DNA from: Candidatus Cloacimonadales bacterium
GTDB taxonomy: Bacteria; Cloacimonadota; Cloacimonadia; Cloacimonadales; DAONDQ01
DNA length: 64,000 nucleotides
Direction of reading: 5' to 3'
Assembly: GCA_963662275.1 (NCBI GenBank)
Contig: OY759316.1
Span: 2,752,001 to 2,816,000, forward strand
The position numbers and the translations under genes are program-made. The notes below the pieces were generated by a model. It was not told the DNA's origin, ran no database searches, and saw only the letters and a list, made by a program, of their open reading frames with translations. Shown in pieces: positions 25,148 to 34,440 of the stretch; position 1 is the first letter of the stretch, and each line of letters starts with the position of its first letter.

Positions 25148-25680
25148 GAGTAGCTGCCAAATCCTGTATGATTCTCTGCTCTGCCAATCTTAATTTTTAA
25201 ATCTTAAATATCTGCGAAAACCATTGACAACAAGTAACGCTTTTCCATAAATAGATAATATATGGAGGAAAACCATGGTTAAAAACCTTTTTCTCTTTAT
25301 TTTTATCTATTCTATACTATTGACGTCCTGCATGAAAGAACGGAAGCATACGAATCCGTTCGATCCACTGGTGAATATAACGACCTCCCCTACAGGTTTA
25401 ACCTTGGAACAAACAAGTGTTACTTCGATTAAGTTAAGTTGGAATGATACTTACGATGGAGAGACCGGTTATCGAATTGACCGTAAAGTTGGTAATGGAA
25501 AATGGCAGCAGGAATATGCTGAAGTACTTCATAATACAAAAATATACAATGATACAAGTACTCAACCACTTCAGACATATTATTACAAAGTTTCTGCTCA
25601 GTATGATGCGAATTATTCGTTGCCAATTTCTGGAAACCTGACAACCAATTTCCCAGCACCAAGTAATATTGTTTCTACAC
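25148..25680 (+). repeat. Direct duplication (second copy ~28167-28705) covering the upstream region and the first ~130 codons of both FGE lipoproteins
   Basis: GAGTAGCTGCCAAATCC...TTGACAACAAG...GGAGGAAAACCATGGTTAAAAACC is essentially identical; identity decays along the CDS. Confidence 0.95.
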
Positions 25681-27971
25681 AGACTGGAGCTTCCATGATC
25701 AAACTCACTTGGATGGATAACAGCGTTGGAGAAGAAGGATTTGTTATTGATCGGAAGGCAGGAACAGGGGTTTGGGTAATGAATTATGCATCTGTTACTG
25801 CTGATACAACGCAGTATGTAGATAGTTCAATTGCATGGGGAACTCCTTATTATTATCGAGTAAAAGGAAAATCTGGTATAGCTTATTCAGCAGAAATAGA
25901 AACGTCATTAACCCCATCTTTCCCTGCCCCCAATAATTTAGTTCTAACCCAGACTGGAGCTACTTCAATATCTCTTCATTGGCAGGATAACACAACTTGG
26001 GAAGATGCTTACATTATCGACCGGAAAGTAGGAACCGGAAATTGGATATTGAATTATGCTTCTGCCAGTGTTAATGCTATTCATTTAACTGATTCTGCTG
26101 TTTTTCCTGATTCCATGTATACATATCGCATCAAAGCAAAATCAGGAACAGTATTTTCAAACTCTATTGAATCTACTTTAACTCCAATATTTCCTGCTCC
26201 AAGCAACCTGAAAATAACACAAAATGGAGCAACGTCATTACTTCTTCAGTGGCATGACAACAACCCATGGGAAGATAGCTTCATCATTGACCGGAAAGTT
26301 GGCAATGGAGCTTGGTTCATAGATTATTATACAGCAAATGCAAATGTAAACAAATTCACTGATACGGATTTAACTTTGGGAACAACCTATTCATATCGAA
26401 TTAAGGCTCGAACTGGAACAACTATTTCAAACACTATTGAGTCATCTATAACAACTTTATTTCCTGCTCCCAGTAACTTAGTATTAACACAAAATGAAGC
26501 CACGTCTTTGCTAATTCAATGGCAGGATAACAGCCAAGGAGAGGACGGTTTTATAATCGATCGGAAAACAGGCAATGGTAACTGGGTTACTAATTTCAAA
26601 ACGATAAAAGCTAATGCAACCCAATTCACTGATCGTGGATTAACTTTGTGGACAGCTTATACCTATCGTGTTAAAGCTTATGTGGGACAGATAACCAGCA
26701 ACTATTCTGATGAATCCACTTTAGCAATTCTTCCTGTTTCTACACCTACATTCAATCCCATAGGTGGAATATATAATACACCCCAAACGGTTTCAATTTC
26801 ATGCACGACACCAGGGGCTACAATAAGATATACTATAGATGGTAATGACCCTACTTACTCATCTGCGGTTTATGACGTCCCACTCAATATATCAACAACG
26901 ACTACAATAATAAAAGCTAAAGCATTTAAGAACGGTTGGGTAGATAGTCAGACAGCTTCTGCAACATATACTCTTTCAGTAGCTACCCCTACTTTCTATC
27001 CAATTGAAGGTACATATTATTTTACCCAGACTGTTTCAATTTCAAGTGCAACACCAGGAGCAACGATTCGATATACTACTGATGATAGTGAACCTACATC
27101 GGCATCAGCAATATATTCCTCCACCCTTAACATATCTTCTACAACAAAGGTAAAAGCGAAAGCATTCAAAACTGATTGGATAGATAGCCAAACAGTTTCA
27201 GCTACTTATAGAATCTCACCAATTCCTACTAACTTTGTCTTGGTGGAGGGAGGAACTTTCAATAACGGTACATCAGATGTGACTGTCAGTAATTTCTATA
27301 TAGATATGTATGAGCTGACACAATCTGCCTATCAGGCTATAATGGGGAATAATCCTGCTCATAGTTATGGAGTTGGCAGCTCACATCCAGTTTATTTTGT
27401 ATCCTGGTTCAATGCAATAAAGTATTGCAACAAACGCAGCATTGCAGAATGTCTGACCCCCTGCTACAGTTATAGTTCCTTTGGCACTAATCCTGCAGAC
27501 TGGCCTGTTGGATGGGATACAAGTTATGGAGAACATATTTATATAGCTTGCTCTTGGACAGCCGACGGTTATCGTCTTCCCACGGAAGCTGAATGGGAGT
27601 TTGCAGCTCGTGGTGGTAATCAGACACATAATTATACTTATAGCGGTAGTAACAATGTTGGTGAAGTGGCTTGGTATCTTGACAACTCATATTCTTCAAC
27701 TCATCCGGTTGGCTGTTTAACTGCCAATGAACTTGGATTATTTGATATGAGCGGTAATGTCTGGGAGTGGAATTGGGATAAGTATGGTACCTTCCCCAGC
27801 GGAGCGCAGACTAACCCGCATGGAGCTGTTAACGGGTCTTATCGGGTGTTACGCGGTAGTAGTTGGAACTATAATGCCCCCGGCATCGTTCTTTCCTATC
27901 GGAGCTACGGTTATGCAAATGACCCCACCACCAATTATGTTGGGTTCCGCCTTTGTAGGATTATCCCTTGA
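25275..27971 (+). CDS. Lipoprotein: 5x FN3, 2x FN3-associated/chitobiase-like domains, C-terminal FGE-sulfatase (C-type lectin fold) domain; putative DGR target
   Basis: Lipobox LLTSC; IRYT.DG..PT domains; YRLPTEAEWEFAARGG, NELGLFDMSGNVWEW, RVLRGSSW...GFRL. Confidence 0.88.
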   Translation: MVKNLFLFIFIYSILLTSCMKERKHTNPFDPLVNITTSPTGLTLEQTSVTSIKLSWNDTYDGETGYRIDRKVGNGKWQQEYAEVLHNTKIYNDTSTQPLQTYYYKVSAQYDANYSLPISGNLTTNFPAPSNIVSTQTGASMIKLTWMDNSVGEEGFVIDRKAGTGVWVMNYASVTADTTQYVDSSIAWGTPYYYRVKGKSGIAYSAEIETSLTPSFPAPNNLVLTQTGATSISLHWQDNTTWEDAYIIDRKVGTGNWILNYASASVNAIHLTDSAVFPDSMYTYRIKAKSGTVFSNSIESTLTPIFPAPSNLKITQNGATSLLLQWHDNNPWEDSFIIDRKVGNGAWFIDYYTANANVNKFTDTDLTLGTTYSYRIKARTGTTISNTIESSITTLFPAPSNLVLTQNEATSLLIQWQDNSQGEDGFIIDRKTGNGNWVTNFKTIKANATQFTDRGLTLWTAYTYRVKAYVGQITSNYSDESTLAILPVSTPTFNPIGGIYNTPQTVSISCTTPGATIRYTIDGNDPTYSSAVYDVPLNISTTTTIIKAKAFKNGWVDSQTASATYTLSVATPTFYPIEGTYYFTQTVSISSATPGATIRYTTDDSEPTSASAIYSSTLNISSTTKVKAKAFKTDWIDSQTVSATYRISPIPTNFVLVEGGTFNNGTSDVTVSNFYIDMYELTQSAYQAIMGNNPAHSYGVGSSHPVYFVSWFNAIKYCNKRSIAECLTPCYSYSSFGTNPADWPVGWDTSYGEHIYIACSWTADGYRLPTEAEWEFAARGGNQTHNYTYSGSNNVGEVAWYLDNSYSSTHPVGCLTANELGLFDMSGNVWEWNWDKYGTFPSGAQTNPHGAVNGSYRVLRGSSWNYNAPGIVLSYRSYGYANDPTTNYVGFRLCRIIP

Positions 27972-28299
27972 GATTTGTGTAAATTTTGTAGCTAGCTTTG
28001 TAAGCTGTTATGTTGTTGGATTTGTAACCATGCAACGGTGGTGATTACTGCAGGAATCGTGGCAGCATCGTTTACGTTGCTTTTCTCCACCAGAGCATTC
28101 AATACCTGAAGGAGTTTCCACACAGCCTAAAGGAGTAACCACCGAAGTTTCCACTCAGCCTGAAAGAGTAGCTGCCAAATCCTGTATGATTCTCTGCTCT
28201 GCCAATCTTCAATCTTAAATTTTAAATCTTAAATATCTGCGAAAACCATTGACAACAAGTAACGCTTTTCCATAAATAGATAATATATGGAGGAAAACC

Positions 28300-30228
28300 A
28301 TGGTTAAAAACCTTTTTCTCTTTATTTTTATCTATTCTCTACTATTAACGTCCTGCATGAAAGAACGGAAGCATACGAATCCGTTCGATCCACTGGTGAA
28401 TATAACGACCTCCCCTACAGGTTTAACCTTGGAACAAACAAGTGTTACATCGATTAAGTTAAGTTGGAATGATACCTACGATGGAGAGACCGGTTATCGA
28501 ATTGACCGTAAAGTTGGTAATGGTGAATGGCAGCAGAGATATGCAGAAATACCTCATAACACAAAAATCTACAATGATATAAGTACTCAACCACTCCAGA
28601 CATATTATTACAAAGTATCTGCCTGCTATGATAAAAACTATTCGCTGCCAATTTCAGGAAACTTGACAACCAATTTCCCAGCACCTAGTAACATTGTCTT
28701 AGAGCAAACTTCAGTATCTACGATCAAGCTGACATGGCTAGATAACAGCATTGGTGAAGAAGGGTTTGTTATTGATAGGAAAGTAGGGACAGAGGATTGG
28801 GTAATGAATTATGCATCTGTTGCTGCTGATACTGTGCGATTTATCGATAACGGATTATCTTTGGGTACAACTTATGCTTATCGTGTGAAAGCCAAGTCTG
28901 GTGAAATCTATTCTGCAGCAATTGAAGCATCACTAACCCTATCTTTCCCTGCCCCCAGTAATTTAGTTCTAATCCAGACTGGAGCTACTTCAATATCTCT
29001 TCATTGGCAGGATAATACGACTTGGGAAGAGACATATATCATAGACCGTAAAACAAATTCAGGAAATTGGATAATAAATTATGCTTCTGCCAATGTTAAT
29101 GCTGTTCAATTAACTGACTCTGCTGTTTTTCTTGATTCTATGTATACCTATCGTATCAAAGCAAAAGCAGGAACAGTATTTTCGAATTCCGTCGAATCAG
29201 TATTAACAGCAACATTTCCTGCACCAAGCAATCTTGTTCTTACCCAAATAGGAGCAACATCAGTACGTCTTCAGTGGCAAGATAACTGCACATGGGAAGA
29301 TGGATTTATTATCGACAGAAAAGTTGGGACAGGAAACTGGGTAACAAGTTACACATCTGTTCATACCAATGTTTCGCAATTCTCGGATACTGGTTTAACT
29401 TTAGGGATCATATATACTTATCGTGTAAGAGCTTTTTCAGGACAATTATTCAGTAATTACTCAACGGAAGTTGGATGGATACTAATGCCTGTCAGTTTTG
29501 TATTAGTCAATGGTGGGACTTTCAACAATGGCACTTCTGATGTAACTGTAAGCAGTTTCTTTATAGATAAATATGAACTTACACAGAATGAGTATCAGAC
29601 TTTCATGGGAAGCAATCCTTCCAATTTCCCTTTGGTCATGGATGGACCAGTTGAGGAAGTCTCTTGGTTCAATTCAATAGAATATTGCAACAGAAGGAGC
29701 ATTAACGAAGGTCTGACTCCCTGCTATGGTTACAGCAGCTATGGCACAAATCCAGCGACCTGGCCTGAGGGTTGGTCTTCCGATTCCAACAACCACACTA
29801 ATGTATCCTGTAATTGGACAGTCAATGGCTATCGTCTTCCCACGGAAGCGGAATGGGAATTTGCAGCCCGAGGTGGTAACGAAACAAACAATTATAACTA
29901 TAGCGGAAGTAATGACCTCGACATTGTAGCTTGGTATGGGGACGAAACAGGTGGTTCAACACACACTGTAGGCACCAAAATAGCCAATGAGCTTGGTATC
30001 TATGACATGAGCGGAAATGTCTGGGAATGGTGCTGGGACATCTATGACAACTACCCGAGTGGTGCGCAAAATAATCCTCATGGTGCTGCAAGCGGATCTG
30101 CCCGTGTATTCCGTGGTGGTAGTTGGGCAAACGATGCCTACTACTGCCTCGTTTCCACTCGGTACAGCTACGCTGTGACGGGCATAAACAACAATTTGGG
30201 TTTCCGCGTTTGTAGGAATGCACCTTGA
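28300..30228 (+). CDS. Paralogous lipoprotein: 4x FN3 + FGE-sulfatase (C-type lectin fold) domain; putative DGR target
   Basis: Lipobox LLTSC; YRLPTEAEWEFAARGG, DMSGNVWEWCWD, RVFRGGSW...LGFRV. Confidence 0.88.
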   Translation: MVKNLFLFIFIYSLLLTSCMKERKHTNPFDPLVNITTSPTGLTLEQTSVTSIKLSWNDTYDGETGYRIDRKVGNGEWQQRYAEIPHNTKIYNDISTQPLQTYYYKVSACYDKNYSLPISGNLTTNFPAPSNIVLEQTSVSTIKLTWLDNSIGEEGFVIDRKVGTEDWVMNYASVAADTVRFIDNGLSLGTTYAYRVKAKSGEIYSAAIEASLTLSFPAPSNLVLIQTGATSISLHWQDNTTWEETYIIDRKTNSGNWIINYASANVNAVQLTDSAVFLDSMYTYRIKAKAGTVFSNSVESVLTATFPAPSNLVLTQIGATSVRLQWQDNCTWEDGFIIDRKVGTGNWVTSYTSVHTNVSQFSDTGLTLGIIYTYRVRAFSGQLFSNYSTEVGWILMPVSFVLVNGGTFNNGTSDVTVSSFFIDKYELTQNEYQTFMGSNPSNFPLVMDGPVEEVSWFNSIEYCNRRSINEGLTPCYGYSSYGTNPATWPEGWSSDSNNHTNVSCNWTVNGYRLPTEAEWEFAARGGNETNNYNYSGSNDLDIVAWYGDETGGSTHTVGTKIANELGIYDMSGNVWEWCWDIYDNYPSGAQNNPHGAASGSARVFRGGSWANDAYYCLVSTRYSYAVTGINNNLGFRVCRNAP

Positions 30229-30578
30229 TTTTTGCATTAATTTCGTACCATAGCTTTGTAAGCTGTTATGTTGTTGGGATTGTATCCCTACAACCATGTA
30301 ACATACATTGGTAATGTGTTGTAATTGACAATGGTATTGTCAGATTCTCCATCGGGGATTACCAATCCCCTCATACAACAGAGTACCACTCTATGTTACA
30401 AGAACCCGAGGTTACAAACCATCGGGAAATAACAAGATGCAATCTTATGCAGAAGGTGTTAGGTTTTAGGTGTTAGCTCAGAAAAGAGAAGAGAAGAATC
30501 AAACTCTCCCTTAATCCCTCCCTTCATCTGAGGGAGGGAGATTAGCGGAGGGAGGGAGATCAGAAAAAGGATAACTAG

Positions 30579-32465
30579 ATGAAATTCAGTTTGATAATTT
30601 TGTTGTTATTAGTTTTGGCTATAGGGCTTCATGCCCAAACCATAGAGCAGATTAAAGTCTCAAATGAATACCTCTGGGGATATGGAACCTCAACAACACT
30701 GGAAAAAGCAGATAACATGGCGTTGAAAGATCTGATCAGCCAGATATCAGTGGAAGTGAAGAGTAGTTTCCAGGATATAGCCAAAGAAGAAAATGGGCAA
30801 CTGAAAGAAGTCTCCGAAAGCATGGTCTCGACCTATTCGCATACGACTTTGCCTTTTGCTGAAAGGAAAGTGGATGAACAGCAAAACTCAGTGAATGTCA
30901 TCAGGTATATCCCAAAAGCAGATCTAAAAAATATTTTTGAAGGACGGAAAAGCAAGATAACCAGCTATGTATCCGATGCGTTGGATGCTGAACAGGATTT
31001 GAGGATTGGAGATGCCCTTCGCTACTACTATGCAGCTTTAATACTTCTTCGTACACACCCTGATCACAATACAATATCCTATCATGTACCGGATAAAGGA
31101 GAACGTCTATTACTGACTTGGATTCCGAATAACATTGAAAGAAATCTATCATCGCTGCGTTTTAAAATACAACAGAAGGAAGAGGATGAAAATTCAGTAC
31201 TCTTTACTCTTCATATTACTGTCTTTGATAAACCAGTTCAGAACATTGATTATTCCTACTGGACTGGCGATTCCTGGTCACAAATAAACAATGCCTCTGA
31301 TGGCATTGGTTCTGCTGAACTTTCTACTGCAGTAGCAAAGAATCTCAAGGAACTACGGTTTCGGATTGATTATGTGAATAACAACAAAGCTAGAACTGAT
31401 TCGGAATTGAATGAAATCCTGAATGACTTTGATGTGTTGCCATTCCGTAATGAAATATGTGTTTCCTTAACCAGCAACAGCGGTAAAGATAATGATGAAT
31501 GCTTGGCTGATAATGAAGACAGGCAAGTCCAGGCAAATGAAAAGCCACAAACAGCTAATACAAAAGAACAGAAGGAAGACTCGAAGATAAAGGAAAAACC
31601 AACCCCAATCTTCAGCCAGGTTGCTCCTGATGAAAGCGAAGCGTATCGTCTTATCATGTCCAGGATTATGAATTCAATAACATCAAAAAGATACAGTGCC
31701 AATCAAGCAGATTTTACACCTGAAGGTTATACGCTTTATCAGAAAATGATTACAGCAGGAAATGCCAGGATTCTAGATGCTGATATAGATAAGATCAACT
31801 ATGTTCAAACAGGAAATATGATCCAGGCACGCTCAATACCGATGGTGTTCAGTTATCCAAATAACAGGTCTCATTTTGTTGAAAATGTGGTATTTGGCTT
31901 TTCACCTGATAAAAAGATAGCAAATGTCAGCTTTGCAGTTTCTGCTCAAACAGCAAATGATATCATGCAGCGGTCAGAGGAATGGGGAACTCCTGAAGTC
32001 AAAACACAGTTGATTCAATTCCTGGAGAACTACAAATCTGCCTTTAGTGTAAAGGATGCAAATTATATAGAGTCAATATTCAGTGAAAATGCCTTGATCA
32101 TTGTAGGGCGTGTGCTTAAGGATTACAAACCGATTGATGGCATGTATGCGAACCTGGGTGAGAAGATCAAGTATGTGCGTTTGAGTAAGCAGCAGTATAT
32201 TGAAAACCTGAAACATGCCTTCGCCTCCAATGAATTCATTAACATTCAGTTTGAGAGTACAAATATCAAGAAAGTGCAGGGTGAGAATATTTATGGGATT
32301 CAAATTGCCCAGAATTACACTTCGTCAACCTATGCGGATAAAGGCTATTTGTTCCTGATGCTGGATTTAAATGACCCGAACGAACCTAAAATATATGTTC
32401 GATCCTGGCAACCAGAAAAGAACCCCGATGGCTCAATCATCGGATTAACAGACTTTCATTTCTAA
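30579..32465 (+). CDS. Secreted LPP20-like protein with uncharacterised C-terminal domains
   Basis: Signal peptide; WGYG...ADNMALKDLISQISVEVKSSF LPP20-like start; C-terminal YADKGYLFL..D...P.IYVRSWQP. Confidence 0.6.
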   Translation: MKFSLIILLLLVLAIGLHAQTIEQIKVSNEYLWGYGTSTTLEKADNMALKDLISQISVEVKSSFQDIAKEENGQLKEVSESMVSTYSHTTLPFAERKVDEQQNSVNVIRYIPKADLKNIFEGRKSKITSYVSDALDAEQDLRIGDALRYYYAALILLRTHPDHNTISYHVPDKGERLLLTWIPNNIERNLSSLRFKIQQKEEDENSVLFTLHITVFDKPVQNIDYSYWTGDSWSQINNASDGIGSAELSTAVAKNLKELRFRIDYVNNNKARTDSELNEILNDFDVLPFRNEICVSLTSNSGKDNDECLADNEDRQVQANEKPQTANTKEQKEDSKIKEKPTPIFSQVAPDESEAYRLIMSRIMNSITSKRYSANQADFTPEGYTLYQKMITAGNARILDADIDKINYVQTGNMIQARSIPMVFSYPNNRSHFVENVVFGFSPDKKIANVSFAVSAQTANDIMQRSEEWGTPEVKTQLIQFLENYKSAFSVKDANYIESIFSENALIIVGRVLKDYKPIDGMYANLGEKIKYVRLSKQQYIENLKHAFASNEFINIQFESTNIKKVQGENIYGIQIAQNYTSSTYADKGYLFLMLDLNDPNEPKIYVRSWQPEKNPDGSIIGLTDFHF

Positions 32466-32475
32466 GGGAGTTTTG

Positions 32476-34440
32476 ATGTGTCGGTATTTCATAATCTTAT
32501 TACTTATATTGTTTTCTTCATTATTAATTGCAAATGAATTTGTAGTAGATTCTTTTGAGGAACAGCAGAATGATCTCAGTCTGCAGCGTACACCCAAGAA
32601 AGATGTAAATGGTGATCTCTGCGGTTTAATTAAGATTAGTACAGATATTACTGGTATTACATTTCCCGACAAGGACATCGTTAATATCCAGGCAAAGACA
32701 GGAGAATATTGGATTTATGTCTCTCCCGGCAAGAAATACCTGAAACTGACAAATGCCGGTTATGCTGCTTATATGTATTCTTTCCCAAATAATATATCTA
32801 TCCAATCAGATTGCGTTTATTCCTTGAAATTAAAATCTAAGGGAGCAAGTGCAGTTGATGAAAACTTACTGCTCCTGACTCTGAAAATGAATGTCAGCGA
32901 TGTCGTGATCATTAAGAATGGGACATCTTCGAATATCGCTAAATTAAACCAGGTACAGTATCGCTTACCGGCAGGAGAATACAATTTCAAATTTGTGAAA
33001 CAAGGTTATGCCAACCAGGAAATCACTGTTAAGATGGATAAACAGGAAGAAACTCGTGACATTACTCTCGTCGCGGGTCAATCACAGGAAAAGATCAAAC
33101 TCCCCGGAATTGTGATGATCTCTTCTGAACCCAACCAGGCAGAAGTGTTTATTAATAACCAGAAAGTCGGTGTCACTCCATATACAGATGAAGTCATTGC
33201 AGGTGATCATCAGTTGATGCTGCGGAAGAATTTGTATGATTCCTATAGTTCTGCTTTTAAAGTAGTTGAAGGACAGACAGTTGAATTACCTTTAATCAAA
33301 ATGACTCCAAAGTATGGCTATTATGCCGTCCAATCAGTTCCTGAAGGGGCAAGGATTTTTTTAGATGGCAAATTGGTTGGTATCTCCCCTATCCCAAGAA
33401 ATACAATATCCAGCGGGGCACATCAAATCAAGGCTGAAATGGAAATGTATCATCCAAAAGAACAGGAAGTAATTATCAAAAATGGTGATGATAAGAATAT
33501 CGCTGTCAACCTTACACCTGCGTTTGGTATCCTGGAAATAACATCTTATCCTGAAACTGGCGGGAAAGTATTTATTGATGATAAGGAAGTCGGTCTGACA
33601 CCATATCTCAATCCGAAAATGATGTCAGGTTCCTACCAAGTTCGTATTGAGAAGCTACTATGGATAGGTGAAGAGCAGACTGTAAGTGTATCTGATAATC
33701 AGACAACCATGAAGCAATTAACCCTGACAAAGAATTATGGTATTTTGCATATCCAAGCCGAGGGGGCTGATATATATCTGAACGATGAAAAAGTTGGAAC
33801 CGGGGAATATTCTCCCAATCTGCTTCCCGGTAAATATACGATTCGAGCAGAAAAAGACAGACATAAAGCAGCATCTGAGGAAGTATATTTAAGCGCAGGC
33901 GATGAAAAGACAATTATATTGAAAGTTGAACCATTGATGGCAGCAGTCAGTGTAATTAGTTTCCCTGAAGATTCTAAAGGTGCAGAGATTTATCTGAATG
34001 ATCAAAAAGCTGATAAACAAACTCCTTCCGTCTTGCCTTTACTGATTGGGGATTACACTATTTCATTGAAACATCCAAAATATCTTGAGCAAAGCCAGAC
34101 AATATCTCTCAAAGAAGGTGACTCGAAAAAGCTGGTGTTCCAGCTTCAATCCTATGAAGGCAGTCGTCTCCAGATGCAAAGTAAATGGAGAACCCAGAAG
34201 TATGTTGCCCTCGGTATCCTGGCATTGGACATGGCGGCTGCAACTATTGGCTATACGCAGGGAAATAGCAACTATGATAAGTATAAGTCAGCTACAACTT
34301 CTGCAACAGCAACGGATTTTTATGATAAAAGTAAGAAATATGATCAGATCGCAGTTGTTACAATTTGTGTATCTCCTCTACCTTTATCATGGTTCATATA
34401 TTCTTGCGTTAAGCAGCATCGTTATGCAGACAGAAGGTAA
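32476..34440 (+). CDS. PEGA-domain repeat protein with C-terminal hydrophobic hairpin
   Basis: Signal peptide; repeated S.P..A.(V/I)F(I/L)(D/N)...VG.TP PEGA units; two hydrophobic segments at the C-terminus. Confidence 0.85.
   Translation: MCRYFIILLLILFSSLLIANEFVVDSFEEQQNDLSLQRTPKKDVNGDLCGLIKISTDITGITFPDKDIVNIQAKTGEYWIYVSPGKKYLKLTNAGYAAYMYSFPNNISIQSDCVYSLKLKSKGASAVDENLLLLTLKMNVSDVVIIKNGTSSNIAKLNQVQYRLPAGEYNFKFVKQGYANQEITVKMDKQEETRDITLVAGQSQEKIKLPGIVMISSEPNQAEVFINNQKVGVTPYTDEVIAGDHQLMLRKNLYDSYSSAFKVVEGQTVELPLIKMTPKYGYYAVQSVPEGARIFLDGKLVGISPIPRNTISSGAHQIKAEMEMYHPKEQEVIIKNGDDKNIAVNLTPAFGILEITSYPETGGKVFIDDKEVGLTPYLNPKMMSGSYQVRIEKLLWIGEEQTVSVSDNQTTMKQLTLTKNYGILHIQAEGADIYLNDEKVGTGEYSPNLLPGKYTIRAEKDRHKAASEEVYLSAGDEKTIILKVEPLMAAVSVISFPEDSKGAEIYLNDQKADKQTPSVLPLLIGDYTISLKHPKYLEQSQTISLKEGDSKKLVFQLQSYEGSRLQMQSKWRTQKYVALGILALDMAAATIGYTQGNSNYDKYKSATTSATATDFYDKSKKYDQIAVVTICVSPLPLSWFIYSCVKQHRYADRR

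Follow-up and report, generated by a model that had tools for sequence, protein, structure and literature searches.

The locus considered here raises the question whether the ends of two neighbouring genes are being diversified, or were once diversified, by a diversity-generating retroelement (DGR). The two genes, A and B, lie in a window of 64,000 nt (G000:C1:2752001-2816000) of the Candidatus Cloacimonadales bacterium assembly GCA_963662275.1 (contig OY759316.1); the genome of the window, G000, consists of one contig of 4,378,784 bp and is 99.97% complete. Both genes are intact tandem open reading frames (ORFs) on the + strand and both end, as the initial annotation had stated, in a domain related to the formylglycine-generating enzyme (FGE) with a C-type lectin (CLec) fold. 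That annotation had further proposed that a reverse transcriptase (RT) and a template repeat (TR) elsewhere in the genome diversify these genes in trans, or once did so. The evidence presented below favours the past tense: the tips of A and B are very probably orphan (fossil) DGR variable regions (VRs) in an expanded paralog family, whose cassette was lost and which have since been frozen. The argument concerns the following features, given in positions of the window.

25275..27971, + strand: gene A, 898 aa, with a putative lipoprotein signal, Fn3 repeats, two CHB_HEX_C_1/Fn3_assoc modules and a C-terminal FGE-sulfatase (CLec-fold) domain (ORF list and Pfam)
27231..27956, + strand: FGE-sulfatase domain of gene A, residues 653-894 (Pfam PF03781, E 2.9e-41)
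27822..27962, + strand: VR_A, the probable fossil variable region of gene A (GS.RV.RGSSW ... GFRLCR), with one codon more than the templates of relatives
28300..30228, + strand: gene B, 642 aa, with a putative lipoprotein signal, Fn3 repeats and a C-terminal FGE-sulfatase domain (ORF list and Pfam)
29497..30213, + strand: FGE-sulfatase domain of gene B, residues 400-638 (Pfam PF03781, E 3.4e-41)
30082..30219, + strand: VR_B, the probable fossil variable region of gene B, which aligns gap-free to the template repeats found in relatives

The tails of A and B diverge from each other in a different manner than the domains that carry them. A codon listing of the last 44-45 codons recovered every scaffold token described before (AGT TGG, GCC, TCC, CGG, TTC CGC, TGT AGG and CCT TGA) as well as the quoted pairs of differing codons (GCC CCC GGC in one gene and TAC TAC after the same GCC in the other; TCC TAT CGG AGC TAC and TCC ACT CGG TAC AGC), and the one-codon indel between the two tails is real. 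The claim that the tail codons differ mostly at positions 1-2 holds when tail and upstream domain are compared by codon position. Across the final 46 codons of the alignment the two genes are 59%, 59% and 61% identical at positions 1, 2 and 3, versus 78%, 78% and 52% over the 197 codons of the upstream FGE domain (the FGE domains are 69% identical at the nucleotide level). Positions 1 and 2 together are more diverged in the tail (54/92 identical, versus 306/394 upstream; Fisher p 3e-4), whereas position 3 is not significantly different (28/46 versus 103/197; p 0.33). Lys, Glu, Gln, Met and Trp do not occur among the variable residues of either gene (0/25 in A and 0/20 in B), while they make up 16.2% of upstream residues in the family.

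Complete DGR cassettes with targets of this type are found in relatives of the same order. With Brt, the RT of the DGR of Bordetella phage BPP-1, as query, the same-order genomes yielded RTs of 336-377 aa (E 1e-41 to 4e-54), with Brt 31-40% identical to the full-length RTs; matches at E <=1e-15 occurred in 35/121 genomes, a count that includes group II intron RTs. Fifteen loci around DGR-type RTs were fetched (L050-L064, from G003, G083, G073, G050 and other genomes), and 13 of them contain TR/VR pairs with adenine-specific mismatches. These are direct repeats of 124-144 nt with 16-25 mismatches, almost all at template A (25/25 in L055, 24/24 in L058, 22/22 in L060 and 16/16 in L057). L062 has two variable regions, and no TR/VR pair was found in L053 and L059, both truncated by contig ends. 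In L050 an FGE lipoprotein gene with the VR is followed by genes for an HRDC protein, bAvd and the RT (RVT_1), and the template sits where the RT gene ends (3' side). The templates of the relatives are rich in AAY codons (Y being C or T) and lie 2-3 kb from the variable region. Read in the frame of the VR, the tail in 11/13 loci is as in A and B, namely ...RGGSW, six residues, C.VS.R, eleven residues, GFRVCRVSP and a stop; L063 and L064 have a different scaffold. The DGR targets of the relatives are close homologues of A and B (~63-69% nucleotide identity), and in G003 the FGE-domain match nearest to gene B sits 1.1 kb from the DGR RT of that genome. Some of these targets carry stop codons: at L050:6164-6190 (G003:C1, minus strand) an in-frame TGA stands in the VR where the template has AAA (GTG AAA CGT to GTG TGA CGT), so that the target ORF ends just before RGGSW, and L061 also has a stop within the variable region.

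The tails of A and B are homologous to and colinear with these demonstrated variable regions, as seen in alignments with 13 templates and with 10 of 12 targets, L055 and L061 having dropped out at the motif parse. Compared with the TR of L054, VR_B has mismatches at 26/48 A sites and 17/90 non-A sites without any gap (odds ratio 5.1, p 3.7e-5). VR_A has mismatches at 26/48 A sites and 24/90 non-A sites, with 3 gap columns for its one extra codon (p 1.7e-3). At non-A sites VR_B shares 81% identity with this TR, compared to 63% between the upstream domain and the L054 target. In an ungapped count the A-site bias of VR_B was found with 10/13 templates (p<0.05), and no bias was seen with the three most distant ones (L062, L063 and L064). 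The third bases point in the same direction. At 13/14 AAY codons gene B carries the same third base as the L051 template, where ~3.7 such matches are expected from the upstream composition, and gene A at 11 or 12/14, depending on the placement of the extra codon (by eye).

The most weighty evidence comes from the paralogs of A and B. G000 contains 48 PF03781 matches, of which two were dropped (the N-terminal piece 1211418-1211909 of a frameshifted gene and a weak match at 1953199, 24.7 bits). One of the 46 left failed the motif parse, which gave 45 segments, and in 30/45 the distance from SW to GFR is exactly 24 codons. In these 30 paralogs the 14 columns at which the template has AAY show mean pairwise identities of 0.31, 0.31 and 0.44 at codon positions 1, 2 and 3, versus 0.375, 0.366 and 0.325 in the 19 hypervariable columns upstream. 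Position 3 is the best conserved position in 14/14 AAY columns, compared with 8/193 columns upstream and 3/19 of the upstream hypervariable ones. Whether the third base is C or T is specific to the column (chi2 71.3, df 13, p 4.6e-10), with counts of C1/T23 in column 3, C21/T2 in column 5, C7/T20 in column 11 and C5/T18 in column 16. C-ending codons dominate in the AAC columns, whereas upstream Asn, Tyr and Asp codons are mostly T-ending. The family thus preserves a ghost of a template in its third bases: the most frequent base at position 3 agrees with the L051 template, which fitted best among the 13 compared, in 14/14 AAY columns and in 22/24 of all columns, and the L054 and L057 templates agree in 13/14. 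Single paralogs range from 14/14 (G000:3951858 and G000:3646020) down to 2/14. The scaffold codons likewise lean towards the synonymous choices of the template: GTT encodes the scaffold Val in 21/21 cases (29% upstream), TCC for Ser, CGG for Arg and TTC for Phe are over-represented, and AGG encodes the final Arg in 20/26. Lys, Glu, Gln, Met and Trp together account for 5.2% of the residues in the variable segments of the family, far below their upstream share, and 31% of the four-fold codons in these segments end in C versus 20% upstream.

Could this pattern arise by ordinary divergence of paralogs, without a retroelement ever having been involved? The scaffold would then be the core of the FGE/CLec fold and the loops would hold binding residues under diversifying selection. 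Such a scenario accounts for the conservation of RGGSW...R...GFR across all PF03781 matches of G000 and for the abundance of Asn, Tyr, Ser, Asp and Gly throughout the domains (Asn is 10.5% upstream), and it agrees with most scaffold synonymous sites having drifted nearly as far as those upstream. It does not account for the third bases. C and T are synonymous in the codons for Asn, Asp, Tyr, His, Cys and Phe and in the AGY codons for Ser, and therefore selection on residues cannot yield a column-specific choice between them, nor can it produce agreement of the majority third base with a foreign template in all 14 columns. The better conservation of position 3 over positions 1-2 in every AAY column, the dominance of C-ending codons in the AAC columns, although Asn, Tyr and Asp are mostly encoded by T-ending codons upstream, and the proven status of the nearest homologues in relatives as DGR targets likewise speak against it. 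We therefore consider ordinary divergence improbable.

A second alternative accepts the DGR and restricts it to one gene: a single ancestral gene was diversified, and the later differences between paralogs, including those between A and B, arose by duplication and point mutation, the third bases being inherited. Shared ancestry alone does give some column-wise conservation. In a rough, midpoint-rooted domain tree without support values, DGR targets from relatives that belong to several families are interspersed among the paralogs of G000, and the subfamilies are therefore older than the loss. Moreover, positions 1-2 of the AAY columns are near random in the paralogs while position 3 is kept, opposite to the hypervariable columns upstream, and point mutation with selection should not have spared the third bases. 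Residues shared by A and B are encoded by the same codon in 10/13 cases in the tail and in 65/124 cases upstream. A single diversified ancestor thus seems hardly probable, and we infer that the ancestral cassette acted on several paralogs.

The family contains an arrangement in which FGE domains are concatenated. One frame of 3333 aa at G000:C1:2908068-2917550 encodes 11 tandem FGE-sulfatase domains, each with a C.VS.R ... GFR(I/V)C tail that here lies within the protein; two of these domains agree with the template third bases at 11/14 and others at 2-4/14. By first-look FGE candidates G000 had the highest number (43), followed by G010 (37; no DGR RT found with Brt or the L050 RT), while the scoring itself took in <=19 candidates per genome. 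A link between FGE expansion and the absence of a DGR was dropped, since genomes with a DGR had 1-22 such candidates and those without 1-43, which shows no clear relation.

Is the machinery that wrote these regions still encoded in the genome? The PF00078 profile matched G000 at 18 places. Seventeen of these belong to two or three multi-copy families of RTs with 412-465 aa; judged by copy number and translation, without a family scan, they resemble group II intron RTs. The remaining match is an ORF of 896 aa with an N-terminal extension (G000:C1:3092718-3095408, minus strand), whose translation reads like an RT-Cas1 fusion. A DGR-clade RT was not found in G000, as Brt matched only the 18 RTs, at 24-30% identity, and Brt and the RTs of 12 relatives are 21-31% identical to these 18. 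No RT or Avd remnants were detected by tblastn with 155 ORFs from the DGR loci of 12 relatives, which matched only the putative group II intron and RT-Cas1 RTs. The best PF22296 (bAvd) match in G000 reached 28.6 bits, under the cut-off of 40, and the four PF05635 proteins of the genome are solitary and far from any RT.

The template repeat is equally missing from G000. VR_A and VR_B, whole and halved, were slid along both strands in an ungapped scan that counted a mismatch only where the genome is not A, and the best non-self site had >=31 non-A mismatches in 132-135 nt. A scan for AAY density found no window of 24 codons with more than 10 AAY codons, the windows with 9-10 did not contain the scaffold, and the templates of relatives have 11-15. 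Blastn of the 13 foreign templates against G000 gave no A-rich match. Three PF03781 fragments, at 615402, 1701075 and 1211909, were considered as templates and rejected; they are coding 3' fragments or part of a frameshifted gene and are not A-rich. The search that the initial annotation had called for, of the whole genome for a non-coding template copy near a DGR-clade RT or avd, thus returned nothing, and its proposal of an RT and template elsewhere in the genome that diversify A and B in trans is not borne out in this almost complete single contig, which has no DGR RT, no bAvd above the cut-off and no template. The other half of that proposal, that the genes were once diversified by a DGR, stands on their colinearity with real VRs, the A-site bias and the template third bases.

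No DGR RT was found with Brt in the congener G001 (99% complete), in a search that did detect DGR RTs in other genomes of the order. The RT of L050 as query also gave no match in G001, where neither genome of that search matched, so that this second result is without a positive control. With the queries used, and from these two genomes, the loss of the cassette would be at least genus-wide.

At two loci of G000 that correspond to DGR loci of the relatives, insertion sequences occupy the place expected for the cassette. G000:3040596-3042460 contains an Ig-like gene and an FGE lipoprotein gene, whose products have 67% and 69% amino acid identity to those of the gene upstream in L051 and of its DGR target, and 53-54% to their counterparts in L054 and L057. 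On their 3' side, at the position where relatives have Avd, RT and template, G000 encodes a tyrosine recombinase and an IS91-type transposase. At G000:615402-615680 a 3' fragment of an FGE gene (113 aa) is followed by an IS110-family transposase and then by genes that are 68-71% identical to the DGR flank of L054. Insertion of these elements may have gone along with the loss of the cassette.

Metagenomic data were compared to see the two regions in other samples. Five runs of two studies contain the stretch and four of them were compared as Logan contigs; the best-covered run may be the source sample itself. VR_A lies within contigs without a single difference in 4/4 runs and VR_B in 3/4 runs, from two studies. 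In the remaining run, X5, a contig of 638 nt is identical to the window over 29831-30098 and continues with 370 nt unlike it, and the depth over 30092-30205 is 1.17. This run also has little or no cover at 26900-27127, 28268-28381 and 29180-29407, none of which is part of a VR, and X5 is interpreted here as a strain that is mosaic or divergent. JGI metagenome contigs yielded no strain variants of VR_B, as an exact 41-nt word from the sequence upstream of it had 0 matches there.

Several points weigh against fossil variable regions as the explanation. Firstly, the ancestral template of A and B themselves is not available, so the A-site tests all rely on templates taken from different families within the order. 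A and B have 17-24 non-A mismatches to these foreign templates, compared to 1-7 over the same segment in real TR/VR pairs (except L060 and L061, gapped pairs that an ungapped count misreads); therefore the two regions have decayed or come from a somewhat different template. Secondly, the conservation of synonymous sites in the scaffold is raised only modestly (0.42 versus 0.33 upstream, for codons of at least four-fold degeneracy; p 0.018), and the third-base identity of 0.44 in the AAY columns of the 30 paralogs is no higher than that of upstream codons for the same residue (0.45), which also suits a single diversified ancestor. A larger contrast of 0.75 versus 0.47, obtained with the 11 best paralogs, is circular because these paralogs were picked by their match to the template, and the p-values of the family analysis overstate independence since paralogs share ancestry. 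Thirdly, the X5 contig departs from the window near the 5' edge of VR_B, as a rewritten variable region would look, contigs cannot reveal minority variants, and the searches for a plasmid- or phage-borne cassette extended to the one-contig assembly alone.

The last of these points bear on a third alternative, that an active DGR still rewrites the regions in trans from a plasmid, a phage or a co-resident strain outside the assembly. DGRs with remote targets are known (PMC8144416). Several paralogs have near-pristine third bases (14/14, 14/14 and 13/14, and gene B 13/14), which argues that the last writing took place later than the saturation of upstream synonymous sites, and in X5 the divergence begins at 30098 with VR_B itself hardly covered. 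On the other side stand a complete chromosome without RT, Avd or template, a congener in which no DGR RT was found with the queries described above, and variable regions that are identical in all (VR_A) or three (VR_B) of four runs from two studies. X5 also lacks three segments outside the VRs, so that it resembles a mosaic strain, and gene B has >=17 non-A differences from every available template. Continued rewriting is accordingly very unlikely in our view. A narrower variant, to which we give just as little credence, would have a mobile cassette of RT and template (on a phage or plasmid or in a neighbour strain) that recently rewrote the best-preserved VRs in trans, the VR_B of X5 being one such event. 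If that were true, the family of ~45 domains would be a set of receptors re-diversified by one shared mutator that spreads horizontally.

We therefore return to the fossil reading and propose the following course of events. The products of A and B would be lipid-anchored surface proteins in which an Fn3 stalk carries a terminal ligand-binding domain of the CLec fold (FGE-sulfatase), and the last ~135-140 nt of each gene would be an orphan DGR variable region. In an ancestor, a cassette of target gene, HRDC protein, bAvd, RT and template repeat would have copied its AAY-rich template by adenine-mutagenic reverse transcription, and the copies would have been written into the 3' ends of several FGE-domain genes. 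This would have randomised codon positions 1-2, while the third bases of the template and the scaffold codons were copied faithfully. The lineage would then have lost the cassette, after which the regions were frozen and decayed by ordinary mutation to different degrees. The diversity of binding sites would remain as a hard-wired repertoire of ~45 FGE domains.

The architecture of the two proteins fits a role in binding. Both N-termini read MVKNLFLFIFIYS(I/L)LLTSC, which we interpret by eye, without a predictor, as a lipobox-like lipoprotein signal. Fn3 matches are present in A and B, the CHB_HEX_C_1/Fn3_assoc modules only in gene A, and the PF03781 match stops 4-5 residues before the stop codon in both. 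Catalytic formylglycine-generating enzymes (SUMF1/FGE) have two cysteines in the C-terminal stretch that corresponds to SW-to-GFR. In the codon listing this stretch has no cysteine in A and one in B. The lipoprotein/Fn3 architecture argues for a putative binding module rather than an enzyme, and the A and B proteins likely bind ligands at the cell surface.

A and B do not form a simple tandem duplicate. Their first 420 nt (25275-25694 and 28300-28719) are 90% identical and the 125 nt before each start 94%, while their FGE domains have diverged and fall in separate subgroups of the rough domain tree mentioned above, in which A clusters with the paralog G000:3579625. Therefore the pair is a mosaic, which suggests that the 5' halves recombined or were converted, or that the 3' domains were swapped. 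Three further features belong to the surroundings of the genes.

28166..28290, + strand: 5' region of gene B, with a 94% identical copy at 25148-25265 (G000:2777148-2777265), 5' of gene A
27982..28036, + strand: dispersed intergenic repeat, copy 1 (core ...AGCTTTGTAAGCTGTTATGTTGTTGG...), directly past the stop of gene A; fold z -0.64, no better than shuffles
30239..30294, + strand: dispersed intergenic repeat, copy 2, past the stop of gene B, with two small hairpins; fold z -2.1

The dispersed repeat, a AGCTTTGTAAGCTGTTATGTTGTTGG core followed by a small hairpin, has ~16 copies in G000. About six of them lie <=110 nt past the stop of an FGE gene on the same strand and the others are far from FGE genes. 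It was considered as a DGR target-recognition hairpin and rejected, as most copies are far from FGE genes and the folds are weak (z -2.1 and -0.6), and it is treated here as a general intergenic repeat. The spacer between A and B (28033-28177) holds a unit of ~105-140 nt, of which a tandem array of >20 units is present at G000:C1:2350621-2354363 and single copies at many other sites. An Rfam search over 27900-30500 returned only a match to RT-6 RNA at 28214-28292 (minus strand) in the AT-rich spacer before B; this match is below threshold (21.8 bits versus a gathering cut-off of 46.7, E 0.099) and probably due to chance. Downstream of B on the same strand (30579-34440) follow an LPP20-like lipoprotein of 628 aa, whose C-terminus is NTF2-like, and a 655-aa protein in which five stretches match the PEGA domain; both may be further envelope or surface proteins.

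Leftover DGR targets are not without precedent. In isolates of Treponema denticola that lack RT and template, genes for FGE-type lipoproteins were compared with the template present in other isolates, and most of the differences fall on adenines; the authors considered these genes leftovers of a lost DGR (PMC4891356). These targets resemble A and B in being FGE-sulfatase (CLec-fold) proteins, mostly with lipoprotein signals, a C-terminal VR and several targets per genome. Unlike the present case, isolates of one species were compared there and the template was known, whereas here the templates were taken from genomes in different families of the order. G000 differs further by its ~45 domains, the 11-domain ORF, the graded decay from 14/14 to 2/14 and a cassette that was found neither in the genome nor in a congener. 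The DGR cassettes of the same order offer a second comparison. Their targets are up to 69% identical to a G000 paralog at the amino acid level, share the VR length, the scaffold and the ...GFRVCRVSP* ending, and their flanking genes recur at two G000 loci; unlike G000, they encode an HRDC protein, bAvd and an RT (336-377 aa) and have a template rich in AAY codons. The prototype DGR, Mtd/Brt/TR of Bordetella phage BPP-1 (AY029185), shares with the genes described here a VR at the C-terminus of a CLec-fold protein, together with adenine-specific mutagenesis templated by a TR. It differs in that Mtd is a phage tail-fibre protein with the cassette in cis, and this variable protein has no detectable sequence kinship with FGE-type lipoproteins. 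Searches of the DGR literature for orphan or lost targets, which covered selected passages including some of PMC8144416 and PMC5758913, brought up no description of a fossil target family like that of G000. The kind of leftover is thus already known from T. denticola, and what is new here is the scale, the depth of the loss and a template that can be read from paralogs alone.

Surveys of DGRs rely on RTs or TR/VR pairs, and genomes such as G000 are therefore counted as free of DGRs. Past DGR activity could be recognised from paralogs alone, by column-specific conservation of third bases combined with randomised positions 1-2. The case also calls for caution, as naming a gene a remote DGR target requires that RT and template are shown. 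Furthermore, the family offers a natural series for the fate of variable proteins after hypermutation ends, from freezing and decay to duplication and concatenation into multi-domain proteins. For the organism itself, the findings suggest that its surface binding proteins form a large and hard-wired repertoire.

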